Assembly (NCBI GenBank): GCA_964342815.1
Contig: CAYFHS010000017.1
Coordinates: forward strand, 1-64,000
Direction of reading: 5' to 3'
DNA from: an uncultured archaeon
GTDB taxonomy: Archaea; Thermoplasmatota; Penumbrarchaeia; JASLWR01
DNA: 64,000 nt
Every line of letters begins with the position of its first letter. The first letter of the stretch is position 1. The position numbers and the translations under genes were made by a program. The notes below the pieces were generated by a model. The model was not told the DNA's origin and made no database searches. It was given only the letters and a program-made list of their open reading frames with translations. This document shows, piece after piece, positions 897 to 51,880 of this stretch.

Positions 897-1937
897 CTAC
901 ATTCCCAGATATTTCGAGTACAATGATTTGGCGGTCTTTTCGTCACTGGTCCCGTTTATGGTTGCCCGGCCATCTTTAAAGATCGTTATCTCGAAGCCTG
1001 GTAATTTGAACACGAGCGCGAATTCCCTGTATTCGACCTCTCCCACCTTCCCTAATTTGGCCCCCAGTTCATCAAGTGAAATATCACTTCGTTTTATTGG
1101 GCTTATCTGGACGACATCCTTCCCACATAGTGCCGTCACCATTGTCCGTTTCTTGACATTTAAGAATTCAAAATCATGCTCAACACAACATCTGCAATCG
1201 TTTTTTCTGGAAACATTTACTTTTTCCCAGCTATGCGTCCACGCGTCTATCATGAAAAGTCCATCATTTATGTTTTTACTATCCAAAAGCAGCTTTATCA
1301 CCTCAGCGCTCTCAACGGCTGCCACAATAGAGGTAACGGAATTCAATATCCCAGCGGTGTCGCAGGTACCCAGAGAACCAGCCGGAGGTATCCCCGGGAT
1401 GATACATTTCAGGCAGGGTGAATCATGGGGGATTATGGTCATGGTCATTCCCTGCGTCCCAATGGCTCCGGCATATATCCAAGGAATCTCATTCTTCACG
1501 CACACATCGTTTATGAGAAAACGCGTTTCCATATTATCGGTACCGTCCACAACTACATCTGTTCCCTTGATCATAAGCTCGGCATTGCTGAAATTCAAGT
1601 CTCGCAGATATGCATCAATCCTTATATCCGAATTGATTTTTTTCAGTTTTTCCGCAGCAACCATTACCTTTGAGCGGCCCACGTCATCTTCGTCATACAA
1701 TATCTGACGCTGCAGGTTGTTCAACTCAATTACATCCCGATCCACAAGTTTGATATGACCGATCCCAGCCCTAGCGAGGTTATTGGCGATATGCCCCCCC
1801 AATGCACCTAAACCTATAACCAACACCTTGGAATCCATTAAAAGTTTCTGACCATCAGGCCCTATCTCGGGTAAGAGCATCTGCCGTGAATACCTTTCGG
1901 TCCTGTTTATCGGTTCCTTGCTCCAATCATTCATCAT
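897..1937 (-). CDS. moeB: ThiF/MoeB/UbaA-family E1-like adenylyltransferase with C-terminal extension domain
   Basis: RYSRQ, GLGALGG, NNLQRQILY, VVDGTDN, CLKC...CRCC Zn pairs, catalytic Cys in GTCDTAG; GGTGAT RBS before ATG 1937. Confidence 0.9.
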   Translation of the reverse strand: MMNDWSKEPINRTERYSRQMLLPEIGPDGQKLLMDSKVLVIGLGALGGHIANNLARAGIGHIKLVDRDVIELNNLQRQILYDEDDVGRSKVMVAAEKLKKINSDIRIDAYLRDLNFSNAELMIKGTDVVVDGTDNMETRFLINDVCVKNEIPWIYAGAIGTQGMTMTIIPHDSPCLKCIIPGIPPAGSLGTCDTAGILNSVTSIVAAVESAEVIKLLLDSKNINDGLFMIDAWTHSWEKVNVSRKNDCRCCVEHDFEFLNVKKRTMVTALCGKDVVQISPIKRSDISLDELGAKLGKVGEVEYREFALVFKLPGFEITIFKDGRATINGTSDEKTAKSLYSKYLGM

Positions 1938-2939: not shown

Positions 2940-3777
2940 ACCCAGAACCGTTATACTCTATGATGATATTACTTCAGGAAACCTGGTTCTATCCGATTTA
3001 AAGAAGTTTATTACTGACCTTATTCCTGGTATCAAAGTGAATCTTAGGAAAGGATTCATTGCACATTTTCTTCCTACTGAAAATTATCAGGAATTCGCAG
3101 GTAAACTGGCTCGAATAAAAATCAGGGATCAAAAACGGATCATAGAGGATTTCAAACCATTACCCGGCGAGATACAATTTGAGAAAAAATTGCTGGATGA
3201 GTCGAAAATTCGAAGGATCGGTGTGGTATATGACGGCTTTGAATTTCAGGGATTATTGAGAGGCCTTTTAGCGGAAAACGAACTTAATATGGCCGTTATA
3301 CATATTGCATTTACCAACCGGCTCATAGCCACCTTCGATGATAATGACAGGCGCTATCACGCACGGGTGATCATATCGGGATACCCCTCGGTAATCTCCA
3401 CCAGCGGTGTTGTGGAGGCCCCGGCCAAACCCAGAGAATTCTACCGCATGAAACAGATGGGGATAATTCTTGGAAATACAACGGTTCCAGCCGAAATATT
3501 GAACCAGCATTTCGAAGGTAGGGTCATGGAGCACGACGACGGGAGACTGACCGAGGTTATGAAAGGATATATAATGCAAGCCGTCTTTTATCATACAACA
3601 GGCAGGGCCTTCTGCAATGATCAAAACTGTCGATTGTTCAACGCACACTGGCAGGATGAGCTGATACAAGCACAAGTGAAAAGCGGCAGGCTGTGTGATG
3701 ATCACAGCAGAATTATACAAGATTTAAAATTATCATTTGAACGCGATCCCGGTGGTACGCCACACTCTCAATCGTAG
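2917..3777 (+). CDS. Archaeal putative metallopeptidase (DUF6775-like)
   Basis: [13 protein letters not shown]-like [12 protein letters not shown]; FYHTTG..FC....C.LFNAHWQ.ELI.AQ...G.LC..H; start uncertain. Confidence 0.65.
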
Positions 3778-12122: not shown

Positions 12123-14849
12123 TTAGAAAACAATTGAGTAGTAAGCGACTAGATATACTCCGACGACGATAAGTATAATCCCACTTATACGTTTTATCCA
12201 TGCAGTTGACACTTTAAGTTTTTGTAGGAGGGTCCCGGCGGACATTGCTATCAAGATTGTGACGAGAACCATTAGTGCAGCCATGACGGAAGCAAGTATC
12301 AAAAAGATGAGCAAGGCCGTAAAAAAGTTCCCCGAACTGAAAGCGGTAAAGATGAGTGCTAAAAGGAGAGGTGCCGTACATCCCGCTGCCGCCCCCGCAT
12401 AACCAACTCCATACCAGAATAATTTCATGTAACCCTTTTTCTTCGCGGACTCAAATCGACTATTCAAATTGGATGGCTCTTTCTTCCTCACGAACATTTT
12501 CTTTACAGGTTCGGTTATTCTTGAAAATGGTATCGTGTAATTCGTAAGCATGACTATTCCAAGGAAAACTATAATAACACCCACGAAGGGTTCGATTACA
12601 GGTATGTATGGTGTGATTGCACTTCCACTAATTCCAACGATTACTCCCAACAACATATATAGAAGGACCAAACCAAGAGCTGCTGCGCCCCCTCCCATCA
12701 ACGCACGGCGGATGCTTCTGGATTTATCGAGCCCCATATAATATGACATATAGCCTGGTAGAAGCGGGAATGAACAAGGAGAAAAGAAGGAACCCACTCC
12801 CACCACCACCGCGAATCCGGCCAAACCCAAAGGGGTCGAACCCAGAGAAACAAGTGCCGCACCACCACCCAATGCCTTCTCCACCTCTTGTGTCAAAGTC
12901 GATTCCGGAACTGCACCCACGTGCGAAAATGTAACGCCACCGTTTTCTTCTATGATGACGATCTTGGGAATTGACACGATATTATATTTTGTTTTGAGAT
13001 CATCCGTATCTCTCGCAAATATCCAAGTTGCCTTATGTTTATTCATAAATTCCCGGAGCTGATCTTCATCTTCATTTTCATATACATCGATGGATATCAT
13101 TACGATATCGTCCCCGTATTTTTCATAAATGGCTCTTAGATCGGGCATTGCGTCATTGCAGGGACCGCATGAAACTGCCATGAAATCTATCACTACCACC
13201 TTCCCCTCGAAATCCGAGAGGCTGAATTCATTACCGTCAATATCTGTCAGAGTGAAATCAGGTGCTTTTTCCCCGCCTCGCATAGAAAGAAGATATATGG
13301 AACCGATGATCATTGCTAGAATGATCAGAGCAATGAACATGAAAAACATTTTCCTATTCTTCTTCAATGTTCCAAACATTGATCCATTCTCGGATCCATT
13401 CGCCTTCTGCTTACCTCTGGAAACAAAAAGGAAAATCGCAATTATTAAAACAAGCAGAATACCCAGTATCAAAAATACGGTTCCCATGGAGAATTGCCCG
13501 TCTGCTTCACTGCTCGAAACACCCTTCGAGATGGTGAAATCGTATATTGAAGAGCGCCCTTCCGCACCCAGACCTCCCGATTCGATCCCACTGCCATCGT
13601 ACGCAAGGATCATCAAATATATATTACCCGAATCGCTGACTTCGATGGTGGTGCTTGCGGTGCTGTCTCCATATGCATAGCATACTCCGGCGTCATCGCA
13701 AACCTCCTCCCCGGTAAGATTCATCTCCGCATACGACCATCGCGTGGAATTGGGTGCTTCGAAATTGTAAAGCACTACTGCTTTTGAGATTCCGTCAATG
13801 TCATCGATCTTTGCATTTACAGTTATTTTTCGGTCAACGACAGTATTGACCTTGGATATCACCGGCAGATCGTTCTCCCGGTCAAAGGCGCTGGACGCTG
13901 GGTTTGCCGACTGAATACACCGCGGCACCTGGGCATTGTTACCCTGGTTGCCTTCCTGGGAACTGGTATCGTCGAGATCGTAAATTGCAGCGACGGCCGT
14001 AAGGTTCCCTGGTCTGATAGGGACCTTTGCCTCAGGTATTTTCCATTCCACCGTGGTTATGAATGTGTCATCATTAGATAGGGTGAACTCCTGACCTTTT
14101 ATCGCATAATCTCTAAAGACGTTTCGATTTATGACCATACGGCCCTCAACGGTACTGAAGGCCTCGACATTCTCTTCCACCATGAAAACATACAAACTTG
14201 CTCGAAGCTGCTCATATGGCAGTATGGCATTGCTTCCGAGATAATGGACCTGAACATTGATTGCATAACTGTCTCCGTTATAAATTTGATCCACGAACAG
14301 ATCAACGTATTTGAAATTATTACCCAGCGATTGGAGAGGATGTCTCGGGTTGATATTTCGCTTGTATCGCTCCTTGGAATCCTCAACAGCCTGGACTGCA
14401 GTATTATAGTTCAGCGTTCCACCGGTCATTCCTCCCAGTTCGATATAACCACCGTCGAATTCCGTATCCGGCGTGCCGGACACACCCGGTTGATAATGCC
14501 GCATTCGTTCTTTCGAATCAGCAGTGGCAAGATCGTCCTCACCACCACCGTTCAACTCGTGAAAAACCACAAAATTGAATGGTTGTTCGGGATCTTCATA
14601 GTTCTCATCCCAAAGTTTATCAAGGTCATAGTGGGGCCCGTTCATGCATGACGGGCAGCTCAATCCAGTGAAGAACTCTATAAGCGGCCGGTGGCGGTAT
14701 CCGGAAGGTGCGGGTATGTTTATCGTTGAATCCAAATCCGGGATATCATCGTATTCCTGTACAGACCCAGCTTGTATGGTGTTTATGAATATTGACAATA
14801 CCAGAATTAATAGAACAATAATTACGATTTTTGTAGCTTTTCTTTTCAT
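12123..14849 (-). CDS. Membrane fusion protein: Omp28/thioredoxin-like CxxC domain + TlpA-like redoxin + CcdA/DsbD transmembrane domain
   Basis: Signal anchor; EFFTGLSCPSC; APDFTL.D..G..FSLSDF.GKVVVIDF...SCGPC; SFFSPCSFPLLPGY and AAGCTAP (CcdA cysteines). Confidence 0.85.
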   Translation of the reverse strand: MKRKATKIVIIVLLILVLSIFINTIQAGSVQEYDDIPDLDSTINIPAPSGYRHRPLIEFFTGLSCPSCMNGPHYDLDKLWDENYEDPEQPFNFVVFHELNGGGEDDLATADSKERMRHYQPGVSGTPDTEFDGGYIELGGMTGGTLNYNTAVQAVEDSKERYKRNINPRHPLQSLGNNFKYVDLFVDQIYNGDSYAINVQVHYLGSNAILPYEQLRASLYVFMVEENVEAFSTVEGRMVINRNVFRDYAIKGQEFTLSNDDTFITTVEWKIPEAKVPIRPGNLTAVAAIYDLDDTSSQEGNQGNNAQVPRCIQSANPASSAFDRENDLPVISKVNTVVDRKITVNAKIDDIDGISKAVVLYNFEAPNSTRWSYAEMNLTGEEVCDDAGVCYAYGDSTASTTIEVSDSGNIYLMILAYDGSGIESGGLGAEGRSSIYDFTISKGVSSSEADGQFSMGTVFLILGILLVLIIAIFLFVSRGKQKANGSENGSMFGTLKKNRKMFFMFIALIILAMIIGSIYLLSMRGGEKAPDFTLTDIDGNEFSLSDFEGKVVVIDFMAVSCGPCNDAMPDLRAIYEKYGDDIVMISIDVYENEDEDQLREFMNKHKATWIFARDTDDLKTKYNIVSIPKIVIIEENGGVTFSHVGAVPESTLTQEVEKALGGGAALVSLGSTPLGLAGFAVVVGVGSFFSPCSFPLLPGYMSYYMGLDKSRSIRRALMGGGAAALGLVLLYMLLGVIVGISGSAITPYIPVIEPFVGVIIVFLGIVMLTNYTIPFSRITEPVKKMFVRKKEPSNLNSRFESAKKKGYMKLFWYGVGYAGAAAGCTAPLLLALIFTAFSSGNFFTALLIFLILASVMAALMVLVTILIAMSAGTLLQKLKVSTAWIKRISGIILIVVGVYLVAYYSIVF

Positions 14850-14881
14850 GTATAACCCGGCACATGGCATATTGTCAATGG

Positions 14882-15264
14882 TGAAAATCTCGATGACCCC
14901 TGCGGGCTCATCTGACTTTCCCGCAGGTATGCTGTAAAGTCTCGAAAGAAAGTCGAGATTTTCAGCTTAGCAATGTTAGCGGAATCTCGGCCCGTAGGAA
15001 ACAAAATGTTTCCGAGGGCTCAGCAATGCCGAAGGTATTGCGGAATATAGTGGGAGCCTGTAGGTTTCCGAAGGAAATCGAAGGCTCAGGTGCATTTTTA
15101 ATGCACCGGAATCTGACCGGACACTTGCGGGCACCTGTAGGAACCTGAAGGGTTCTGAAGGTGCAGTTGCATCTCGATGCAACGGAGTAAAACGGGCAGG
15201 TCAGATGTGCCGTCAGGTACATCGAGATGTAATGGGAGCCCGTAGGGTCGATTCCGCCGAATAT
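14882..15264 (+). ncRNA. Candidate modular structured ncRNA / dispersed structured repeat, copy 1 (three tandem GUA/GA stem modules)
   Basis: Closing stem GCGGAATC 14979-14986 / GATTCCGC 15250-15257; three internal units with compensatory changes; homologous copy at ~43400-43633. Confidence 0.65.
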
Positions 15265-34591: not shown

Positions 34592-34773
34592 TCGGATTCC
34601 TCCAATAATAAAATACAATTTCTTTCATATAAATATCCTTTGTCAAGTTTAGAAAAATAAAGTTTTGTTCGACAACTATTGATTCTTACTTGTTGATTCG
34701 CTTGTACTCTATTATTTATATAATGAAAACCTTATTTTACAATGTATCTCGACAAAATCCTAAAGGAATTGCC

Positions 34774-37428
34774 ATGTATTTGAAAAAAACGGTTACTCTG
34801 GCGTTGACTCTGCTCCTCCTCTCATCATATTGTATCATCGGTTTTGATCTAACTCAACCAGAGAAAAGGGAAGCGCACCTATCAACTAGCGTGATACAGA
34901 GTAAAGATGATCCATACATAAGAACCAGGTTCGCAGGCGGGGATGGTACTAAAGAAAATCCGTATCAGATATCTAATGTTACGCAGCTGCAGGATATGAA
35001 TTTGGATTTGTCTGCGAATTATACTTTAACTAATAACATTGATGCTTCAGAGACGACGACTTGGGATTCTGGTAAAGGATTCGAATCCATTGGGGACGAT
35101 TACAAAGCTAGATTCATCGGAAAAATAGATGGCCAAGGGTATCAAATCTCAGACCTTTATATTGAAAGACCGACCGAGAATCCTGTTGGACTTTTCGAAT
35201 GTATAGGTAATGGAGGACATATCAGCAATATTTCAATAGTTGATAGTCAAGTTGTTGGCGATTGGAATGTTGGAGTGATGGTGGGATTGAATTATGGTAT
35301 AGTTCAGAATTGCCTGGGAACAGGATATATGAGCGGAGAATGGAGCGTAGGTGGGTTAGTAGGTGAGAATAGAGGTATGGTTAACAATTGCTTGGCAATA
35401 GGAAATGTGTGGGGCGGATTTATGATTGGTGGATTAGTGGGTGAGAATACAGAGACTGTTCAGAACAGCTCAGCAACAGGAAATGTGAATGGAGAATCGG
35501 ATGTTGGGGGTTTAGTGGGTTGGAATACTGGAGTGGTTCAGAACAGTTCTTCAGCGGGGAATGTGAGTGGAGAGTATGGCATTGGCGGATTAGTGGGATA
35601 TAATTCAGACACGATACAGAATTGCTTTTCAAACACTAATATATCTGGATATGCGGAAATCGGAGGACTGGTGGGATTAAACTATGAGAGAATCGAAAAT
35701 TCGTTCTATTGTATTAATACAACCACTATAAATCGAAGAAACGTAATTTCTCGCTATGGAATCCTTAAAAAACAATTTGATCAGTGGATAGTTAATGGAA
35801 AAACACTCAACATAGATGATTATCTTTCCAAGATCATTGGTTCGGATTACTACAATATTTCAAATACATCAGATATAAAAGAAATGCTTCCTTTCGCGGC
35901 ATATGGTGAGTATAATTTTAAACAGACCGCCGATATCGATATGTTATCCGAACCTAACCTATACATTCCCATATTAAATTCAGGAAAATATGATGGATCC
36001 GGTTATTTGATATCGAACATGAAAGTCACTATTCGTGAGTTTTCAAAAATTGGATTTTTTGGGATTCTTGGTAAAAAAGCAACTATTACTAATGTTACAC
36101 TAATTAAGAATAACATACATGGTTTTGATTATATTGGCGGTCTTGTGGGTCATAATTATGGTGAAATCAAGAACTGTACGATTAGTGGAAACATTGCGGG
36201 TCGCAGAGATGTCGGAGGGCTTGTAGGAGTGAATACTGGCATTATTGAGAACTCATCCTCACGTGCAAATACATCAGGCGATAGGAATATTGGTGGATTG
36301 GTAGGCTCTAACTATATAAACATAATAAATTCGTTCTCAATGGGTAATATATATGGAATTATTGGATGGAACTTTAGTAATGTTGGAGGATTTGTTGGGT
36401 ATAATCATGGAACAATAAAACGATGTATTACAAAAACTAATGTATTTGGAAATTATGGTGTTGGTGGTTTTGTTGGAGAGAACTCAGGTGGATTTGAAGG
36501 TGGTATTATTAAAAAATCATCAACGACTGCGAATGTATCCGGTATTGGATATGTTGGTGGATTCGTTGGGGAAAATAGTGGAGCCATAAAAGAAAGTTAT
36601 TCAGATACAAATGTATCTGGTGAATATTATGTTGGAGGATTTGTTGGATTGTATTCCGGTGGATCGTCATTGTTTTGTATTATTGAAAACTGCTATTCAA
36701 AAAGCATAGTTTTTGGGAATTTTAGTGTCGGTGGTTTTGTTGGAAACCATACAAATCGCTCAATACGCCCGGGTGTTTTCAAAAATTGTTATTCAATAGG
36801 TAAACTGTATGGTAACTATTCTATTGGAGGTTTTTTAGGGGGGGAAACTAGCCCGATAATCAATAATAGTTACTGGGATATAGAAGCATCCGGTATAAGT
36901 TCAAGTGGAGCTGGCAAGGGGATAATGACCTTTGAAATGATGACCAAAAGCACTTTCACAGAGGCGGGTTGGGATTTTGGTGAAATATGGGCAATTAACG
37001 AATATGTCGAACCCCCTCATTTTCAATGGGAAAAACGACCATCTATTGTAGCTGATGATTCCGATAATGACAGTATTCCAGATATCATAGACGATTTTCC
37101 TCTTGATCCTTCTGCATCCTTAGATCTGGACAACGACAAGAAACCGGACCGGTGGAATCCCGGTATGAACCAAAGTGACTCAACGTCGACCCCTCCATTA
37201 GAACTGGATATATACCCAAACGATCCTGAAAACAAAGCACCGGATGAAGATGGTCCTGAAATCCCAACAGATAGTAGTTCAAAGACCTGGATTTGGATCT
37301 CGGTGACCGTTGTGGTTATATTATTTAACGCCATTATTATTGTTGTATCAGTCAAGGGTAAAAGAAAGCCACCGGAAAATGAAGAAAAAGATAATCTTGG
37401 TAGGGTTAACGCCAATAAAGACCGTTAG
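34774..37428 (+). CDS. GLUG-motif surface protein with TSP3-like Ca-binding repeat and C-terminal TM
   Basis: FAGGDGTKENPYQISN..QLQ; many GG(L/F)VG.N repeats; DSDNDSIPD..D.FP.DP; TM WIWISVTVVVILFNAIIIVVSV. Confidence 0.88.
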   Translation: MYLKKTVTLALTLLLLSSYCIIGFDLTQPEKREAHLSTSVIQSKDDPYIRTRFAGGDGTKENPYQISNVTQLQDMNLDLSANYTLTNNIDASETTTWDSGKGFESIGDDYKARFIGKIDGQGYQISDLYIERPTENPVGLFECIGNGGHISNISIVDSQVVGDWNVGVMVGLNYGIVQNCLGTGYMSGEWSVGGLVGENRGMVNNCLAIGNVWGGFMIGGLVGENTETVQNSSATGNVNGESDVGGLVGWNTGVVQNSSSAGNVSGEYGIGGLVGYNSDTIQNCFSNTNISGYAEIGGLVGLNYERIENSFYCINTTTINRRNVISRYGILKKQFDQWIVNGKTLNIDDYLSKIIGSDYYNISNTSDIKEMLPFAAYGEYNFKQTADIDMLSEPNLYIPILNSGKYDGSGYLISNMKVTIREFSKIGFFGILGKKATITNVTLIKNNIHGFDYIGGLVGHNYGEIKNCTISGNIAGRRDVGGLVGVNTGIIENSSSRANTSGDRNIGGLVGSNYINIINSFSMGNIYGIIGWNFSNVGGFVGYNHGTIKRCITKTNVFGNYGVGGFVGENSGGFEGGIIKKSSTTANVSGIGYVGGFVGENSGAIKESYSDTNVSGEYYVGGFVGLYSGGSSLFCIIENCYSKSIVFGNFSVGGFVGNHTNRSIRPGVFKNCYSIGKLYGNYSIGGFLGGETSPIINNSYWDIEASGISSSGAGKGIMTFEMMTKSTFTEAGWDFGEIWAINEYVEPPHFQWEKRPSIVADDSDNDSIPDIIDDFPLDPSASLDLDNDKKPDRWNPGMNQSDSTSTPPLELDIYPNDPENKAPDEDGPEIPTDSSSKTWIWISVTVVVILFNAIIIVVSVKGKRKPPENEEKDNLGRVNANKDR

Positions 37429-42933: not shown

Positions 42934-42966
42934 GATAATTACCTGGCCCTGGGAACACAAAAGGCC

Positions 42967-42980
42967 GATATAAATCTTTC
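42967..42980 (-). promoter_or_regulatory. BRE/TATA promoter for the Sm-NMD3 genes
   Basis: Minus-strand GAAAGA TTTATATC about 35 nt upstream of the Sm start. Confidence 0.55.
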
Positions 42981-43357
42981 CTCCGAGATGGTCAGTGAAA
43001 AATCCTGAAATGACCTTTGGAGCTGATACGGTCGAATAATAATATTCGTTTCAAGTCAAAACTGGGTTCCTAGAGTATATCCGAGGTGAATTGACCAGGG
43101 AAAAGAGAGATATTTCGGGATACATCGGGGATTGTTGGGCTTCTCCAACCATATTATGTCTATTTGTGGGGTCAATCGCCTTCATTTCAACCCAATTTCA
43201 ACGATAATCCTTCATCGAATAAGAGTATTAAGGCAGGTGTGACTTTTTGATAGGTCTCGTGGTTCATGTGAGTAATGTTAAATATAACATTAATAATGTG
43301 GTAGGAAAATCTAATAGGGCAATTCATGGGCACTAATAATATTATCTGGCAAGTAAG

Positions 43358-43371
43358 AGAGAACATATAAG
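43358..43371 (+). promoter_or_regulatory. BRE/TATA-like promoter upstream of the structured aglB leader
   Basis: Purine-rich AGAGAA followed by CATATAAG; predicted start site ~43392-43400. Confidence 0.4.
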
Positions 43372-43399
43372 ACTCTTAAAATTGAAAAAAACAGATATT

Positions 43400-43633
43400 C
43401 TATCGATGCCCGTATATTGTCAAATGGACAAACATCGACTTTTATCGATGTTTGCATATGATAATGTTCGCAGAATCGCAGCCCGTAGGTGCCTGAAGAA
43501 CGAAGTTCTTCTACACCCTAATAGAATCTCAGATTCTATGTCGGGAAACAGAATGTTTCTGAGGGCACAGCAACGCCCGAAAGGTGTTGCGAAGTGGAAC
43601 GGGTGCCCGAAGGGACCGATTCTGCTGAATATT
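43400..43633 (+). ncRNA. Candidate structured ncRNA / cis-regulatory leader, copy 2 of the element at 14882-15264
   Basis: Closing stem AATGTTCGCAGAATCG 43463-43478 / CGATTCTGC-T-GAATATT 43617-43633; shared GCCCGTAGG, GAAACARAATGTTTC, GAGGGCWCA-hairpin; ends just before the aglB RBS. Confidence 0.65.
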
Positions 43634-43648
43634 CAACAGGTGGATCTG

Positions 43649-46600
43649 ATGGTGAAAGAGATACCAAGAACGAAGAAATGGGAAAAAACGTTATCATCAG
43701 CGTCGGGGAAAAAGGCAGAAAAAGAAAGCCTGGTCACCAAATTCAAAACCTATTTCGGTATTGGAGCTTACGAGGGAAAGGATACTTGGTTCTCTCGTAA
43801 TTGGTGGTTACTATTGGCGCTGGCGGGAATATTTCTGGTGGGTATGTTCCTGAGATCTTACTTCTATTTTCCCATGGCACAGGACGTGGGCTTTTCAGGG
43901 AACGACCCCTATTATCACAAAAGAGTAGTAGATTACATCCAGCAATCTCATTCACATCTGATAGAGGACAACATGCTGAATTATCCGGTTGGTGGCGCTA
44001 ATCCGCGACCTCCGTTCTACAACTGGTTCGTTGCGGTTTTCGGCATCATTCTTTCACCGTTATTCGGATTCAATGTAAAACTCGCCACGGAATCTATCAT
44101 GTATCTAGCACCTTCCTTCTGGGGAGCATTGACAGTATTTCCGGTCTATTTCCTCGCCAAGGATATGTTTGGTAAAAAGGCGGGCGTAATAAGCGCATTT
44201 CTCATGGCATTCATGCCTTCCCATATCGAAAGGTCTCCTTCGGGATTCTCGGATCACGATTCTATAGTCGTCTTCTTCGTGGTGTTGTCGATATTCCTGC
44301 TGTTCAGGGCATATCGCACACTTAAGCACGAGGACTGGGTAAAGGACTGGCGAAGCACGAATTCGATCTATAAGGGATTTTCAACCTTCTTCAGAAAAAA
44401 TAAGGTATCACTGTATTACTCGCTTCTTTCGGGCGTTTCGCTGGCAACCATCGCACTTACCTGGAAAGGTTTTCCGTACGCTCTTGTGATCATAATCATA
44501 TATTACATGCTTCAGCTTCTTTTCGATCGCTTCAGACACGTTGATTCAACCGGCGTTTTTATTTGTACTTTTCTGGCTCTTTTCTCTGCTTTGGCCATCT
44601 CGTTTCCGTACTATTACGTTCTCAGTTTCGGAACCTGGGCCACACCGGTCTATTTCCTTGCGGCTGTGGTTGTGATCGGAGTTTTGCTTATACCCACTCG
44701 TGATTATCCATGGATCATAGTGCTGCCTCTGGGAGTGATAGTGTCCCTTGTTGGCTATCTCTTCCTGAGCATCATTGCACCTGCAGCTGCCGAAGCTCTG
44801 ATAACGGGACAGGGTTATTTCGTGAAGACGAAACTGTACTCCACAATTGCTGAGGCTCAGCCTCCCGCATTTTCCAAGCTTATCGTGTCGTACGCAATGA
44901 TCGTGTTCTTCCTCGCAGTGATAGGGATCGTGAAAGCGGCTTTTCAGGTGCCGAAACACTGGAAGAGGGAATTTGTCTTCATCGTTGTTTGGGCCATCGT
45001 TGCCGTGTACATGGCCATGTCGGCCGCTCGTTTCATGTTCAACGCGACACCTGTGATAGCCATTGTTGCCGGATGGGTGCTGTACGACCTGATCCAAAAG
45101 ATAAACCTGAAGAGCAAGATATTGATATTCTATACTCTGATGCTTGGCCTGTCCCTGCTATTGCTGGGATGGTGGGGGATAAATCATGGATTCGGATACA
45201 AGTACACATTGTTTGTCTTTATGGCAGCGATCGCAATGGCAGCCATTCCAATTATCGTGGCCGTCTATGATAATTACGATAAAAGACCCGCCATAATGAT
45301 AATGGTTGCCATGTGTGCAATTTGGACCGTTGCGGTCATAGTTATGATTATTTTGGATGAAAACCTAAAATGGGACAACTTCGGAACTGTCATGCTGGAT
45401 AATATTAACATTTGGTATTTCGGCCTTGCTGCCCTGGGGATAATGGTCCTCCCGATACTCATATTTATAACCAAAAGGACTTTTGCGATTCTTCATATAA
45501 TATTGATCACATCGGCCACATTTCTAATAATCGGACTCAAAGATACAGGTTCCTTCGACAGCTTGTTCACTTGGAAACCAATGGTTGTGGCGGTGGGATA
45601 TTCCATAATTCCCTGTGGAATATTGTTATTCAATATCTATTTCCTGTTCTCGGATAAATCTTACAGGAAGGAAACGGGCCGAAAGGTGCTTTTCGTAGGA
45701 CTGGAACTCTGGGTGCTTTCCTTTTTCTTCGATCCGCAAATATACACGGGACTCGCGGCCTTTGCTCTTTTCGTGATTAATCTTTACCTGCTAACTCCCT
45801 ACAGGAAAACTTTCAAGCACAAGACCAAACCAATGCATGTGATTATCACTCTATTCATCGTATTTATCGTAATATTCCCCACCTGCTGGTTTGCGATAGA
45901 TGCTTCCCTGCCTTATGAAAAGAAATTTGAGATGAATAACAGAGTTGCAAGGTCAATTCCCGATTTCATTAAAAGTGATACGGCTTCGAACAACAAATAT
46001 TTCGGGGCCTTCGGTCACGGATTCACATCGGAATACTGGAGAAATGCATTTGATTGGCTTAGTAAACAGGACGTGGACAGGCCACCGGAGGAAAGACCCG
46101 GTTTCGTTAGCTGGTGGGATTACGGTTTCTGGTGCGCCTATCTCGGACAACATCCCACGGCTGCAGATAATTTCCAGTACGGTTACCAGTTTGCTGGAAG
46201 TTTCATCGCCTCCCAGAATGAATCGGAGGCAGTTGGATTGATGGTTGCCAGAACTATAGAAGGCGGTATCAAGGATCCTAAAATGAAAGAGGAGATCTCT
46301 GACATCCTCGATAGCGATAAATATTTCGGGCCCGAGAAAAAATTCAAGAGCAACATCGATTCGTCCGATCTCAGCGCAAGTGAAAAGATATTCGAGATGT
46401 TGTTATATCCCGAGGAATACATAGAAGAGATAAAGAATAACCCGGAAAAATACGGCAAATACCTGCAGCTGCTCTATGGGAATGCCAGGTATGCATCGGT
46501 AAGAGGAATGCTGATGCCGCTAGGAGAGGATAAGATAATCGATCTAATGGCTGATATCGAGGGGATCACAGACAAGTGCATAAGATATTTCGCAGTGGAT

Positions 46601-49600
46601 TATCGCCTTTTCCCGTTCACGGCACAGAACACTGGTATCTTTTATGCTCCAATTAAACTGGCGGACAAGGATGTGGAGGATTTTCTGGAATATATTGCTG
46701 TTACCACAGAAGGCGATATGACCATGACGGAACTGGAAGAAAGGATATTACAAGAACCCGAATTCCGAGATCAGGTGACAGACTACAAATTGAAATACAC
46801 CGATCAATTCTACGATTCCATGTTCTACAGGTGTTATATAGGCTACAGCGGTAAAGACCTCGGTGCAGGTGATCTCGGGGTACCCCTGCTTTCCCCCACG
46901 GGTGAATTCGCCTCGAACCAGTATTTTCAACCGATGCAGGGATGGAACATGAGCCATTTCAGGCTCGTGTACCGGACTACCTACTACACCCCCATGGATC
47001 CCCAAAACGCATCGTTCCCGGAAGATTTCACCGCCATGAACTCCGATGAAGCATACGAACTGTACGCCGAGCAAGGCGGATATCAGATATCCGGTCTCAG
47101 ACAGGGCGCCTTCTTTCTCAAATACTACCACGGTGCGCAGCTGGTGGGAAAATTGAGAGCGGAAGGGGAGGACGGAACACCCATGCCAGGGGTCCGAATA
47201 ACCGCAGTGGATGAATACGGTATTCTCCACGATGTATCAATCACGGATGAGAACGGTAATTACAATCTGACCCTTCCATTCGGAGAGGTTACGGTTGTGG
47301 CATCCAAGGACGGATACGACGAAGAAAACGAGCTCTTCTCAAAATTAATGGGAAATGAGAAAACTGTACTGAACCGAACGGTTTTGCAGATCACTGATGA
47401 CCAGGCAATGAGGCGCGGCAACTGGATCATTAAAAAAGACCTCACCATAAAAAGATCCTCCATTGATGGTAAAGTGTACTACGATGACAATGACGACGGT
47501 GAATATGATATTTTCGATACATTGGCTACAGAAGCGGTTGTGGAGATCGTATCTAAGGACGGTCGTGAAATAACCTACAATGACAGTCTGGAAAACGGTG
47601 AATTCAACATCACGAACGTGCTGCCCGCCGAATACGATATAAGGGTGATGACGGACGGTCATACGGTGAAGATCAAAGATCCGTTCTCGGTGGTACCAAA
47701 CGAAAATCAGCGGTTCAATGCTTTCACATTGCACCTTTTACTGCCAATGGGGAACATTTCCGGGAACATAACGTTCGATAACGGGACCCGGGCGCCTTCG
47801 ATACACGTGGAACTGAGAGATAATGAAAACGGTACCTTATATCATACCGACACGAACAAAACAGGCTTTTTTAATTTTGGTTCCCTTCTCCCGGGAAACT
47901 ACTCCCTGGTGGTAGACCATACCCTGTACAAGAGGCTCATGAAGGATATCGACCTCGAAGAGGGAGCTCTTTTCCAGCACAACTTTACCTTGACCGAGGT
48001 GGTTCCCGTATCCGGCGAAGTCTATTATGAAGGGATTGATGATAATAAGCAGCCGCTTCCGAACGCCAGAATACAGTTCATTGACGAGCTGTACCCGGAA
48101 AACATAATAGTGGTCACATCCGATAAAAACGGCCAATACCTTGCTAATCTATCTCTCGGGAACTACACTATATATGCTGATTATACGAAAGGTAATGAGC
48201 ACTACACTTGCTTGGAAGAAGCCGAGTTCCGTGCTGGTGTGGAATATTCTAAGGATATTGAGTTAAGCAGCTCAATAAAGATAATGGGTACTCTTGGCAT
48301 TCATGATGAGATCGATGTGGAGGAGGATAATTCAACAAAGGGGGTACTTGTCCGTTTCAGAGGAGAGTCCGGCAATTACTTCGCTCCCACCAACGACAGC
48401 AGCTATTTTTCGGTCTATCTGCCAGAAGGTGAATATCAGATATCCGCCGATCTTTTCCTAAAAGGGGATTATGGCGTAGCCGCAAAACACGTATCGGGAA
48501 CCGGAGGTGAAGAAATCACCATTGACCTCATCGCTAAGTGGGCTTATCCCGTTTACGGTTTCGTTTTCTGGGATAGAAACGGCGACATGAACTTGACCAT
48601 TGGGAACAGTACTATCGATATAATGCGGCTATCGGAACAGTTTAGGGAGACTGAACCGGAATTGGAAGAGAACGATGAGATCCCCGAGGAATTTGAAGAT
48701 TCCACAAGTTCCATCGCCGAAACTGACGACAGCGGTACAAGAGCGGACGAAAATGTGACCGAGGGTGAAGAAGAAACCCCATTCAGCGTGGATAACGTCA
48801 CCCTCCCCAATGCAACCAATGATACCGTGGAAGCACCGCCGTTATATGAGAACCTAACCCCTGCACACGTGGAATTCCGGCAAGGAGAGAATGTCTTTAC
48901 TGCCGATACTAACCAAAGCGGGTTTTTCACACGCTTACTCCCTCTGGGAGATTATGTAATGCGGATTGAAACAGATGAAATTTCTCTGTATGAAACCACC
49001 GTAACCGTGTTTGACGGGAAAGATGACGTAATACAGCCTCCGATACGACCAAAAAATGTCACCTTCGACATATTCCTGGGAGTTGATCGGGACCTTGACG
49101 GGCAGCTTAAGGAAGACGAGCTCCTGAAGAGCTACGAACTGGAGTTTTCAGGCACAACTCCGGCTGCCGTGAATGCCACGTACAACTTCAGGCAGGGAAA
49201 TCCCAAGAAAGGGGCACTGGTACCAGGCGAATATAAAGTAAAATATCTGAAAGAATTCATACTGTCCGGGACTGATGTCCGCCAGGAGATGGAAACCAAC
49301 ATAACCCTGCATCTGGGTGAGAGTGATCGGCAGCTTATCTTCCTCGTGGATGAAACGGTACGCTTCTCTGGGAAGGCTAAGACTGAAACTGACAGCCCTG
49401 CAGACAACGCGACCCTGACCCTGAGATCCATACACTTCAACACCACCACCGAGGTAAATTGTGACAAGCAGGGGAATTTCGATGAAAATGTTCCCTTCGG
49501 AATGTATTTCGTAAGAACCAGTATCATTGAGGGCTCTTCGAACTTCCTCTTCAGGAAGATCATGGACATCTCCCCTGGAAACAGCCCATTCTCCATCATT

Positions 49601-51880
49601 CTGAAAAAAGCTCGTCCCTTCAACATAACGGTCTATTTCGACATTAATCAGGACGGCGGATTCCAGGGTGCTGAAAAACTGCTCAGCGTTCCCGTTAGCA
49701 TATCCGCTGATATCACATCCACTCACACAACGGATTACAACGGCTTCATCAGCACATCGCTTTTACCCGGTAAGACCTACAACATATCCATAGATCACCT
49801 GACATCCGACTCTTCTTTTAAGTATACCGCGAAACTGGTAATTGTAATGCCTGACGAACCTTACGAGATCTATCTTCCGGTAACGAAATACATCAAGGTG
49901 AAAGGGAAGACATTCTGGGACAAAGATGCGGATAATACCTTCGATACGGGAGAGGAGATTGCTGATGCAGATATCAGCGTAAGCCCCGTGGGAAGTCCTG
50001 GAGACTACACCGCCCGTTCGAATGCAGACGGCCAGTGGAACGTTTTCCTGCCCATTTACCTTGACAATAAACGGGAATATCAGTTCTCGACAAGCTCGGA
50101 AAGTTTCATACCGGATATTTTCTCAAGGGAAGTATCCTTGGACAATAAAACATTCGACATTGCTTTGGGGCCCCGTAAACTCGAATATCACGGTACCGTC
50201 TTCATGGATATATATCGAAATGACACAATGGATCCCGACGAGCTACCAGCACCTCTTAATACCATTATCAAATTTACCACGAATTCCAAGACAGGTCGAA
50301 ATACAAACGCCACCACTGATGTTAATGGTTATTATTCCACGGAATTATACCCGGGAGAATATTTCGTTGAGATACTCTCCATCGATGATGACGTTATATA
50401 TATCTATGAAGCCGAGGAAACGGTCGCCCTTGGTGAGGACAAACTCTATTCCATTCCCATGGACCCGGGAGCGAACGTCTACGGGGCTGTGAAATATACG
50501 GACACCGATCTGGTCGAACACAGGGAAATCGATTCTCAGGATAACAACATTACAATAAAGGGTGTAGGAAACGATATCGAAAGGGAACTCACATTCCAGG
50601 ATGGTTTTTACGAGACCTATCTGCCCTTTGGAGAGTATAAAATCGAAATGAAGGGTTATACCAGCAATGAATATGGAATGGAAATGGTATACGAGTATCC
50701 CGAAACCGATCATTATGTGGATTTCAATCCCTTTATCCTGGATTTCACCCTGTCAAAGGTGTACGATCGAACGCTGGAGCTGTCTATCCGGGAAGTGGTT
50801 GGAGAGGAGAATTTCGAAAAAACCGTCAATCAGGGAGAGACCGTTGAGCTTCATTTGAATGTTGAGAACAAGGGAAACGTAAAGCAGGAAGTTACACTCA
50901 ACGGGAAGGATCTACCCGAGGGGTGGTCCACCGATATCACGCCAAGAGAACAAGAACTGGATATTGGCGAATCTTTCGAAGCGAAGATTGTCGTACGAAC
51001 CTCATTCGATTCATTCCGGCTCAATGAATTCAAAATCGAAGCAAAGAATGAGGCAGGGGATACCGAAGAAATAACTTTGAACATAAACACCCACCCGAAA
51101 TACGACGTCGAAATATTTTCCCAGGACTTGCTCGCCAGGGGTTTTCGATCCAACGAGACAAAAAGATTCAACATAACCGTGATGAACAAGGGAAATGCTG
51201 CGGACGAGATAAAATTCTATCTCAAGCAGGATGCATCCCCGCTCTGGAATATAACGATGCAGGATGAGCCGCTCAATACCACTGGGATCCTTCACAGTTA
51301 TGAGCAGGACGACGTTTACAAGAACGTATCGTTCAAGATAACCGCTCCAAACCTTACCAAAAGCAGCGCAACCTTCAATATAGGAGTGGCCGGATTGGGT
51401 ATCAAGGAGAAAATAATAACCGTAAATGCTGTTATTGCAACTCCTGACATCAGCATTGCCGACATAAGCTTTGCAAACCTTGATATGGCTGACGAGGATA
51501 AGAACGTCACCATGTATGTCACAATTCACTGCGACCAGGCCGATGTTGGTAAATTCGATTTTAATGTATATCTCGACGATGAGAAGGTAGATGAGCTTTC
51601 AGATAACATAGAAGGAATTCTACAGGACGACGATCACAAACTGGTGTTCGACTGGAACCTCTCGGACAAGTTGGGGAAACACAAACTTGAGATTAAGGTT
51701 GACGAGGATGACCAGATCCGTGAGAGGGATGACATCACTAACAACAACAGAGAGATAACAATTCATGTGGGCCCGGACGAATCAGAGGGATTCAACTGGC
51801 GTATAGTAATAGCCATATTCGTGGTCGTTATCTTGATCATCGTTGCCATGGTGGTTTGGAAGAAAAAGCAGATAGTGTAA
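43649..51880 (+). CDS. aglB: Giant AglB/STT3 oligosaccharyltransferase fused to a very large extracellular beta-repeat region and a C-terminal TM anchor
   Basis: AGGTG RBS before ATG 43649; DPYYH, FSDHD, TIAE, SWWDYG, DNFQ; carboxypeptidase-regulatory-like and CARDB-like repeats; terminal TM + KKK. Confidence 0.92.
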   Translation: MVKEIPRTKKWEKTLSSASGKKAEKESLVTKFKTYFGIGAYEGKDTWFSRNWWLLLALAGIFLVGMFLRSYFYFPMAQDVGFSGNDPYYHKRVVDYIQQSHSHLIEDNMLNYPVGGANPRPPFYNWFVAVFGIILSPLFGFNVKLATESIMYLAPSFWGALTVFPVYFLAKDMFGKKAGVISAFLMAFMPSHIERSPSGFSDHDSIVVFFVVLSIFLLFRAYRTLKHEDWVKDWRSTNSIYKGFSTFFRKNKVSLYYSLLSGVSLATIALTWKGFPYALVIIIIYYMLQLLFDRFRHVDSTGVFICTFLALFSALAISFPYYYVLSFGTWATPVYFLAAVVVIGVLLIPTRDYPWIIVLPLGVIVSLVGYLFLSIIAPAAAEALITGQGYFVKTKLYSTIAEAQPPAFSKLIVSYAMIVFFLAVIGIVKAAFQVPKHWKREFVFIVVWAIVAVYMAMSAARFMFNATPVIAIVAGWVLYDLIQKINLKSKILIFYTLMLGLSLLLLGWWGINHGFGYKYTLFVFMAAIAMAAIPIIVAVYDNYDKRPAIMIMVAMCAIWTVAVIVMIILDENLKWDNFGTVMLDNINIWYFGLAALGIMVLPILIFITKRTFAILHIILITSATFLIIGLKDTGSFDSLFTWKPMVVAVGYSIIPCGILLFNIYFLFSDKSYRKETGRKVLFVGLELWVLSFFFDPQIYTGLAAFALFVINLYLLTPYRKTFKHKTKPMHVIITLFIVFIVIFPTCWFAIDASLPYEKKFEMNNRVARSIPDFIKSDTASNNKYFGAFGHGFTSEYWRNAFDWLSKQDVDRPPEERPGFVSWWDYGFWCAYLGQHPTAADNFQYGYQFAGSFIASQNESEAVGLMVARTIEGGIKDPKMKEEISDILDSDKYFGPEKKFKSNIDSSDLSASEKIFEMLLYPEEYIEEIKNNPEKYGKYLQLLYGNARYASVRGMLMPLGEDKIIDLMADIEGITDKCIRYFAVDYRLFPFTAQNTGIFYAPIKLADKDVEDFLEYIAVTTEGDMTMTELEERILQEPEFRDQVTDYKLKYTDQFYDSMFYRCYIGYSGKDLGAGDLGVPLLSPTGEFASNQYFQPMQGWNMSHFRLVYRTTYYTPMDPQNASFPEDFTAMNSDEAYELYAEQGGYQISGLRQGAFFLKYYHGAQLVGKLRAEGEDGTPMPGVRITAVDEYGILHDVSITDENGNYNLTLPFGEVTVVASKDGYDEENELFSKLMGNEKTVLNRTVLQITDDQAMRRGNWIIKKDLTIKRSSIDGKVYYDDNDDGEYDIFDTLATEAVVEIVSKDGREITYNDSLENGEFNITNVLPAEYDIRVMTDGHTVKIKDPFSVVPNENQRFNAFTLHLLLPMGNISGNITFDNGTRAPSIHVELRDNENGTLYHTDTNKTGFFNFGSLLPGNYSLVVDHTLYKRLMKDIDLEEGALFQHNFTLTEVVPVSGEVYYEGIDDNKQPLPNARIQFIDELYPENIIVVTSDKNGQYLANLSLGNYTIYADYTKGNEHYTCLEEAEFRAGVEYSKDIELSSSIKIMGTLGIHDEIDVEEDNSTKGVLVRFRGESGNYFAPTNDSSYFSVYLPEGEYQISADLFLKGDYGVAAKHVSGTGGEEITIDLIAKWAYPVYGFVFWDRNGDMNLTIGNSTIDIMRLSEQFRETEPELEENDEIPEEFEDSTSSIAETDDSGTRADENVTEGEEETPFSVDNVTLPNATNDTVEAPPLYENLTPAHVEFRQGENVFTADTNQSGFFTRLLPLGDYVMRIETDEISLYETTVTVFDGKDDVIQPPIRPKNVTFDIFLGVDRDLDGQLKEDELLKSYELEFSGTTPAAVNATYNFRQGNPKKGALVPGEYKVKYLKEFILSGTDVRQEMETNITLHLGESDRQLIFLVDETVRFSGKAKTETDSPADNATLTLRSIHFNTTTEVNCDKQGNFDENVPFGMYFVRTSIIEGSSNFLFRKIMDISPGNSPFSIILKKARPFNITVYFDINQDGGFQGAEKLLSVPVSISADITSTHTTDYNGFISTSLLPGKTYNISIDHLTSDSSFKYTAKLVIVMPDEPYEIYLPVTKYIKVKGKTFWDKDADNTFDTGEEIADADISVSPVGSPGDYTARSNADGQWNVFLPIYLDNKREYQFSTSSESFIPDIFSREVSLDNKTFDIALGPRKLEYHGTVFMDIYRNDTMDPDELPAPLNTIIKFTTNSKTGRNTNATTDVNGYYSTELYPGEYFVEILSIDDDVIYIYEAEETVALGEDKLYSIPMDPGANVYGAVKYTDTDLVEHREIDSQDNNITIKGVGNDIERELTFQDGFYETYLPFGEYKIEMKGYTSNEYGMEMVYEYPETDHYVDFNPFILDFTLSKVYDRTLELSIREVVGEENFEKTVNQGETVELHLNVENKGNVKQEVTLNGKDLPEGWSTDITPREQELDIGESFEAKIVVRTSFDSFRLNEFKIEAKNEAGDTEEITLNINTHPKYDVEIFSQDLLARGFRSNETKRFNITVMNKGNAADEIKFYLKQDASPLWNITMQDEPLNTTGILHSYEQDDVYKNVSFKITAPNLTKSSATFNIGVAGLGIKEKIITVNAVIATPDISIADISFANLDMADEDKNVTMYVTIHCDQADVGKFDFNVYLDDEKVDELSDNIEGILQDDDHKLVFDWNLSDKLGKHKLEIKVDEDDQIRERDDITNNNREITIHVGPDESEGFNWRIVIAIFVVVILIIVAMVVWKKKQIV

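Follow-up and report, generated by a model that had tools for sequence, protein, structure and literature searches.

A folded, non-coding repeat family of marine Thermoplasmatota, probably mobile, supplies the structured element upstream of an archaeal aglB gene

To our knowledge, transposase-free hairpin repeats have barely been described in archaea outside the haloarchaea, and a literature search on Thermoplasmatota and miniature inverted-repeat elements found no paper. By design, the described system nearest to the element analyzed here is the BOX repeat of Streptococcus pneumoniae, a small, non-coding, dispersed, and strongly folding sequence of the form boxA-boxB(n)-boxC with no known dedicated transposase (PMC3049150). 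By habit, the nearest are the REP/BIME/REPIN sequences, GTAG-tagged palindromes with RAYT transposases (PMC3733652), and the haloarchaeal PATEs and SMR-A, small mobile repeats of Haloquadratum walsbyi (PMC3119063). Correia, ERIC, and RUP are further structured bacterial repeats that alter neighboring genes (summarized in PMC3049150).

The window analyzed here is a 64,000-nt stretch of DNA from a marine Thermoplasmatota MAG (G000; 4.35 Mb in 116 contigs, 88.9% complete). The original prediction had recognized in it a structured element in two copies and had read the second (copy 2) as a leader specific to aglB, with alternative helices that would form a conformational switch. The observation behind this reading is real but incomplete. 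Copies 1 and 2 are homologous and their stems do differ by compensatory changes: the closing stem is GCAGAATC (43470-77)/GATTCTGC (43618-25) in copy 2 and GCGGAATC/GATTCCGC in copy 1, the hairpin GCAACGCC/GGTGTTGC corresponds to GCAATGCC/GGTATTGC, and GGGCAC (43563-68)/GTGCCC (43603-08) corresponds to GGGCTC/GAGCCC. The two hairpins said to be extra in copy 2 (GAAGAAC/GTTCTTC and ATAGAATC/GATTCTAT) are present, GCCC and GGGC lie where they had been placed (43481-84 and 43563-66), and the GTA/GA modules number three in copy 1 and one in copy 2. The element also ends before the aglB ribosome-binding site as described, whereas its start is at 43414 rather than near 43400 or at the GCAGAATC stem (Table 1). 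The whole of domain 1 (box ATATTGTCAAATGG and its hairpin), which is conserved in the family, had been overlooked.

Table 1. Coordinates in the window of the aglB-proximal element (copy 2), its parts and surroundings, and copy 1
Feature	Position	Strand	Basis
Whole inserted element (copy 2), 215 nt, ATATTGTC to GCTGA	43414..43628	+	Empty site in G001 and family alignment
Domain 1: 5' box ATATTGTCAAATGG, inner hairpin ACAAACATCGA/TCGATGTTTG, and TGATAATGT back-paired to the box	43414..43467	+	Consensus structure (17 minimal copies) and MFE fold
Domain 2 terminal stem, 5' arm GTTC-GCAGAATC-G	43466..43478	+	Co-varies with the 3' arm across copies
Variable interior of copy 2	43481..43612	+	Sequence reading, fold, and module comparison
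Terminal stem 3' arm and element end (CGATTCTGC-TGA)	43617..43628	+	Family alignment and consensus structure
ATATT, target sequence	43629..43633	+	Single in the G001 empty site; its AT matches that at 43414-15
aglB ribosome-binding site GGTGGATC and start ATG (43649)	43639..43651	+	Outside the element; conserved in G001
Copy 1, same family, ~394 nt, enlarged domain 1, three GTA/GA modules	14869..15262	+	Family search and module comparison

What had been taken for a two-copy element belongs to a dispersed family. A BLAST search of the element against its own genome returned 48 matching places, among them a copy at C25:15708-15833 that is 87% identical to copy 2 (E = 1.4e-37). Pairing of the two conserved ends in G000 gave 47 candidate pairs, of which three were chance pairs, leaving 44 copies. 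R1, a covariance model derived from 17 minimal copies, gave 44-60 matches in the same genome, about 45-50 of them sense copies, and matched copy 2 at 43409-43523 (E = 2.7e-6). The copies range from 72 to 461 nt and share constant ends around interiors of zero to three or more modules. According to an alignment of upstream flanks, domain 1 combines a box ATATTGTCAATGG and a hairpin with GCTTGACAAT, and the last of these base-pairs with the box. In domain 2, the terminal stem GCRGWATC/GATWCYGC is conserved, taking the forms GCGGAATC, GCAGAATC, and GCGGTATC in different copies, and encloses an interior that in G000 extends from 16 nt (~26 minimal copies) to ~290 nt. The interior of copy 2 is made up of one GTA/GA module (GCCC..GGGC), the hairpin GCAACGCC/GGTGTTGC, a linker, and GTGCCC-GAA-GGG, together with two sub-module hairpins that are common to the copies at C25 and C33.

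The family is unevenly distributed among the roughly 40 relatives searched with R1. There were 65 matches in G001, which belongs to the same genus as G000; 77 in G003; 39 in G005, from another family; and between one and nine in each of six genomes of family f7. No match was found in G002, a member of the same family as G000, or in about 30 other genomes. Two other MAGs, JASLWR01 (ETNP2_MAG_1) and CAYRFL01, contain the exact 22-mer of the domain junction, and an exact-pattern scan of viral contigs with the junction 20-mer gave no match. Taken with the insertion sites described below, this makes it likely that copy 2 is one copy of a non-coding, non-autonomous family of mobile repeats carried by certain marine Thermoplasmatota.

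Comparison with the sister species G001, whose AglB is 93% identical over 500 aa, shows the aglB site in its empty state. The upstream regions align base for base, and G001 reads gcccga-ATATT-taacaggtggatctgATG, with no element, where the window reads gcccgt-(ATATTGTC...GCTGA)-ATATT-caacaggtggatctgATG; the promoter region, ribosome-binding site, and start codon of aglB are the same in both. The site of copy 1 is likewise empty in G001, with a spacer of 68 nt against 588 nt in G000. Conversely, four sites are filled in G001 and empty in G000 (C6:71529, C22:61461, C1:27819, and C2:52378), as is a fifth with more diverged flanks (C2:136155), for a total of seven filled/empty pairs. Empty sites have one AT, and filled sites have the form AT-ATTGTC...GCTGA-AT, in five clean cases and one more diverged. 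This pattern represents either a 2-bp duplication of AT or the insertion, 5' of an AT, of an element that itself starts with AT, two events that leave the same sequence. The leader reading thus fails on the very observation that the original prediction had set against it, namely, many copies with target duplications, as in a MITE.

Searching 14 aglB loci with R1 without filters gave matches in G000 and G003 only; the element is absent from the aglB loci of G001, G002, and ten further relatives. The copy in G003, which is of another genus, is a minimal one in sense orientation, ~130 nt upstream of the start codon and within other flanks (L057 ~3124-3226, minus strand), and is therefore a separate insertion. 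The presence of copies before aglB in both G003 and G000 may be a coincidence or may reflect a favored landing zone. In G003, a further GC-rich, hairpin-like stretch of 130 nt lies between this copy and the start codon.

The element is strongly folded. The 247-nt region of copy 2 has a predicted energy of -89.1 kcal/mol (z = -5.4), which none of 200 shuffled sequences equaled, and the opposite strand reaches a comparable stability (z = -6.6), which is expected of a palindromic element. The strand that matters can be told from the family. In the consensus structure of the 17 minimal copies, 8 of the 26 pairs show double compensatory changes, and among the non-consensus cells in stems there are 28 G-U against 2 A-C; one U-G pair is invariant in 17/17 copies. 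Since G-U pairs on one strand are C-A mismatches on the other, selection acts on the ATATTGTC...GCTGA strand. It is thus as a single strand, and in that orientation, that the element folds; for copy 2, this is the sense strand of aglB. The excess of G-U cannot distinguish between RNA and single-stranded DNA.

The alternative pairings of GGGC on which the proposed switch was built do exist, and both registers co-vary across the family: GCCC/GGGC, GCCT/AGGC, and ACCT/AGGT in the first and GGGCTC/GAGCCC, GGGCAC/GTGCCC, and AGGCTC/GAGCCT in the second. Yet a simpler explanation requires no switch. Direct repeats of GCCC-GTA-GG border every GTA/GA module, and the middle arm (GGGC, AGGC, or AGGT) pairs with the 5' copy or, two bases longer, with the 3' copy, so that two co-varying registers arise from the repeats. 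With many copies in the genome, AT duplications around them, and no element at orthologous aglB sites, neither a conformational switch nor an aglB-specific leader is upheld. The TATA-like box at 43364-71, noted about 30 nt before the proposed leader, is not conserved in G001. We also considered a K-turn, and with it L7Ae binding, for the GTA/GA loop. The K-turn consensus is a 3-nt bulge followed by tandem sheared G-A/A-G pairs; the loop has a 3x2 geometry (GTA opposite GA) between G-C pairs, and its bulged strand has no GA after the bulge, so this motif was rejected.

Copies 1 and 2 both face envelope genes, as had been noted, judging by the domains of the flanking genes. Copy 1 is flanked by genes for a redoxin/DsbD fusion and for a CarboxypepD_reg/PEGA/zinc-ribbon protein. 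The AglB downstream of copy 2 is a giant fusion of ~2740 aa (window 43649-51880), in which Pfam places STT3 and AglB_core at the N terminus, followed by CarboxypepD_reg, transthyretin-like, and CARDB domains; its divergent neighbors encode an LSM protein and NMD3. For aglB, open frames of ~2400-2800 aa occur in nearly all of the 30 relatives searched, indicating that this architecture is class-wide. The gene starts at the ATG behind GGTGGATC. A longer ORF of 2832 aa from TTG 43382 exceeds it by 89 codons and runs through the element because one of the three frames of copy 2 has no stop (the other two have five and three). We rejected the idea that the element is built for in-frame read-through, as the sense frames are open in only 3, 9, and 7 of 35 copies. 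The antisense frames of the 35 full copies in G000 lack stops in 39% of cases, against 10.5% in shuffled sequences, which may matter for copies that land inside genes.

One public metatranscriptome run, available as contigs only and at low depth (12 of 30 bins covered), bears on transcription. A 229-nt contig from this RNA library matches 43484-43708 with no mismatch, joining the 3' two thirds of the element to the ribosome-binding site and the start of aglB; the contigs carry neither strand nor end information, and DNA carry-over is possible. Other contigs match stretches of aglB and of genes upstream, and none covers 42935-43468, a gap that at such depth says nothing about where transcription starts. 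On the strength of the bridging contig, the element is probably located in the 5' untranslated region (UTR) of aglB, in agreement with the original prediction, but as a lineage-specific insertion.

The orientation of the copies relative to their neighbors depends on their length. Short copies in G000 show no bias, with 12 co-oriented with the downstream gene and 9 convergent. Among long copies (domain 2 of at least 100 nt), 14 are co-oriented and 4 convergent in G000 after two hand corrections, while the 16 long copies of G001 and G003 taken together, nearly all at sites that are empty in G000, include 11 co-oriented and 4 convergent. Combined, this amounts to 25 against 8 (binomial P of ~0.005), for a length split made post hoc, with crude ORF calls and copies that are not fully independent. 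Many long copies, like copy 2, end 15-40 nt before the downstream start codon. About a quarter of all copies lie antisense between two genes, and spacers between convergent genes are the rarest context. We treat the bias of the long copies as a lead rather than a result; it may point to a role, or a bias, that operates on RNA. There is a small chance that long, module-bearing copies act in mRNA, for instance as protective 5' structures or through protein-binding GTA/GA modules, and have for this reason been retained or have grown in sense orientation before start codons. If so, the family would be a mobile, modular supplier of RNA structure for archaeal 5' UTRs, with the aglB copy as a working example.

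The most probable alternative holds that the element, in origin a mobile insertion, is now kept as a structured 5' leader of aglB that modulates translation or the stability of the mRNA, perhaps through a switch between the two GGGC registers or a protein bound to the GTA/GA loops. The bridging RNA contig and the coincidence of the folding strand with the aglB sense strand would suit such a leader, although in the MFE fold the ribosome-binding site and start codon remain outside the structure. The co-variation of both registers is also expected from the direct repeats around the modules, and the preference of long copies for a co-oriented position shortly before start codons is subject to the caveats given above. 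A second sense copy upstream of aglB in G003 points in the same direction, yet it differs from that of G000 in both form and position. Against a gene-specific leader or riboswitch, the element is missing in G001 despite an intact promoter region and ribosome-binding site, it is missing at 12 of the 14 aglB loci, with no conservation upstream of the orthologues, and no Rfam family matched the window at the gathering score, copies 1 and 2 giving only noise at E values of up to 10. We consider this alternative unlikely.

Resident copies change in a manner of their own. Four sites are occupied in both G000 and G001. At C2:73297, 2 of 95 positions differ between the two species, while the flanks are about 80% identical or less; C24:2709 shows 2 differences over the 63 positions of the conserved parts and 8 over the 16 of the inner hairpin; and at C36:3216 and C13:8425, whole modules in both domains distinguish the copies of the two species. 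The conserved parts of orthologous copies are thus ~97% identical, against ~80% for the flanking genes, which is unlike decaying junk and needs selection, gene conversion, or re-insertion. Together with the swapped hairpins and modules, this conservation suggests gene conversion or re-insertion rather than simple decay, and modules seem to be added and lost at the GCCC-GTA-GG repeats. The same conservation, the strand-specific maintenance of structure with its excess of G-U, and the recurrence of the 3x2 internal loops could instead mark small structured RNAs that are transcribed on their own, for instance protein-binding or guide-like ones, with genes that multiply and a position at aglB that is incidental. 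Such genes would be hard to reconcile with the absence of a shared promoter (nothing is conserved among copies upstream of the 5' box). Nor do interiors of 16 to ~290 nt with variable content, the antisense position of about a quarter of the copies, a patchy spread that leaves out G002, or the lack of an Rfam match fit them, and we hold this explanation to be highly unlikely. Finally, an array of double-stranded DNA sites for a host protein (nucleoid, topology, or replication), without a single-stranded stage and similar to proposed roles of REP/BIME, would agree with intergenic, dispersed copies with conserved ends, but it is extremely improbable given that the 28:2 asymmetry between G-U and A-C is meaningless in duplex DNA, that inner stems keep pairing while their sequence changes, and that the distribution among lineages is patchy.

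Under the preferred reading, a mobile repeat family, the element would move, or be recognized, as a folded single strand, most likely of DNA, through an enzyme acting in trans. Copy 2 would have inserted 20 nt ahead of the aglB start codon once the lineage had separated from G001, and it would now sit passively in the 5' UTR, where it forms a very stable structure; an influence on aglB expression would then be a by-product of the insertion and not the work of a dedicated switch. Resident copies would acquire and lose modules, probably through recombination or nested insertion at the GCCC-GTA-GG repeats, and the competing helices would result from this. Several points count against this reading: the searches described below found no mobilizing enzyme and, in G000, no ORF-bearing version, orthologous copies are conserved at ~97%, long copies are biased in orientation, G003 also has a copy at aglB, and the excess of G-U suits RNA as well as single-stranded DNA.

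To look for the enzyme, we compared families of mobilizing proteins in repeat-rich genomes with those in the repeat-free G002, none of these genomes being complete. The Y1 transposase (PF01797) was found in G001 and G003 and not in G000, G002, G005, or G030; TnpB was found in none of five genomes; reverse transcriptase (RVT_1) and DDE_3 were each found in G003 and G005 only; IS110 was found in G000 only; and Resolvase was found in all five genomes, including G002. No family among these six tracks the repeat, and no matching transposase was found. R1 found no copy within about 1.5 kb of the Y1 genes of G001 and G003, and the Y1 gene of G003 has its own IS200-like GCCAG...CTGG hairpins, unrelated to the family. 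An autonomous version, sought in G000 as a 5' box and a 3' end that are separated by 0.5-8 kb and enclose an ORF, did not appear; the lengths of paired ends stop at ~460 nt, and longer pairs look like chance. In G001, a cccc-GTAG-hairpin-CGA unit lies just downstream of a 155-aa Y1 (IS200-like) gene (L069 ~1400-1460, minus strand). Its syntax is that of the GTA/GA modules, and a link to a REP/RAYT-like system is possible. The contigs C110 (1.6 kb) and C76 (3 kb) of G000 carry a lone IS110-type transposase and an extra 201-aa resolvase, neither of which turned up in G001 or G003; both are probably mobile DNA that escaped assembly.

How does the family compare with the systems introduced above? 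As in BOX, conserved end modules surround a variable number of self-folding internal modules, without sequence homology between the two; members of both frequently form 5' or 3' extensions of operon transcripts, and neither has a known dedicated transposase. The family differs in being archaeal and unrelated in sequence, and its modules are nested in hairpin loops, whereas those of BOX stand in tandem. It has empty sites that carry AT on both sides when filled, while nothing comparable was found for BOX, and BOX is over-represented between convergent genes, where our family is rarest (PMC3049150).

The family lacks the defining features of REP-RAYT, PATE, and classical MITE systems. It resembles REP sequences in its short palindromes, co-varying stems, and frequent G-T pairs, in its tendency to cluster and nest, and in its uneven presence among relatives; its inner modules even have GTAG beside a stem and a 3-nt CGA/TGA tail. 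In contrast to an unpaired end tag, this GTAG is an internal loop in a longer helix, found only inside GTA/GA modules, and the ends of the family are ATATTGTC and GCTGA. A generic population of GTAG-REPs was discarded because, across the genome, GTAG comes 238th among 256 hairpin tags. Family copies do not flank any RAYT-like gene, and G000 and G005 have repeats with no Y1 gene found. With PATEs and SMR-A, the family shares an archaeal host, the lack of a transposase, hairpins, tens of copies, insertions specific to strains or species, and elements inserted into the palindromes of other elements; the mobilization of SMR-A is likewise unexplained. PATEs derive from IS605 and share its near-terminal palindromes (PMC3119063), while here there is no IS605/TnpB and the Y1 hairpins differ. 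The haloarchaeal repeats show no target duplication and SMR-A copies are >95% uniform (PMC3119063), in contrast to the AT on both sides and the high modularity of the present family.

The likeness to MITEs and to Correia, ERIC, and RUP lies in a length of <500 bp, the lack of coding capacity, many copies (~45-77 per genome), presence/absence polymorphism, and a short target duplication, the AT on both sides being equally explicable by an AT-starting element inserted 5' of AT, as well as in the ability to occupy 5' UTRs and alter the fate of transcripts. The outer ends share only ATATT/AATAT, so that inverted repeats extend no further than about 5 nt, and no parent insertion sequence with matching ends occurs among the families tested. 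Tc1/IS630 elements duplicate TA; a 2-bp duplication of AT is not a signature of the usual partners of MITEs. Overall, no known mobilization system accounts for the combination of BOX-like modularity, a 2-bp AT duplication, strand-specific folding, and ~97% conservation within ~80% identical surroundings.

The family thus places very stable structures in 5' UTRs, for example, that of the gene for a giant AglB oligosaccharyltransferase. We see no aglB riboswitch here, and masking of the family is advisable before structured RNAs or long N-terminal extensions are called. Sister species with and without the insert also offer a natural experiment on 5' UTR structure and expression in archaea.

Two minor observations concern other genes of the window. 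An ORF of 912 aa at 34690-37428 consists of many 78-nt (26-aa) repeats with a GG-x-VG-x-N motif (families D1-D5) and looks like a repeat-rich surface protein. At the site of copy 1, the AT that opens the element completes an additional in-frame ATG of the redoxin/DsbD gene on the minus strand (window 14847-14870); the longest ORF of this gene accordingly starts at 14870, ~7 codons beyond the start conserved in G001 (~14849).
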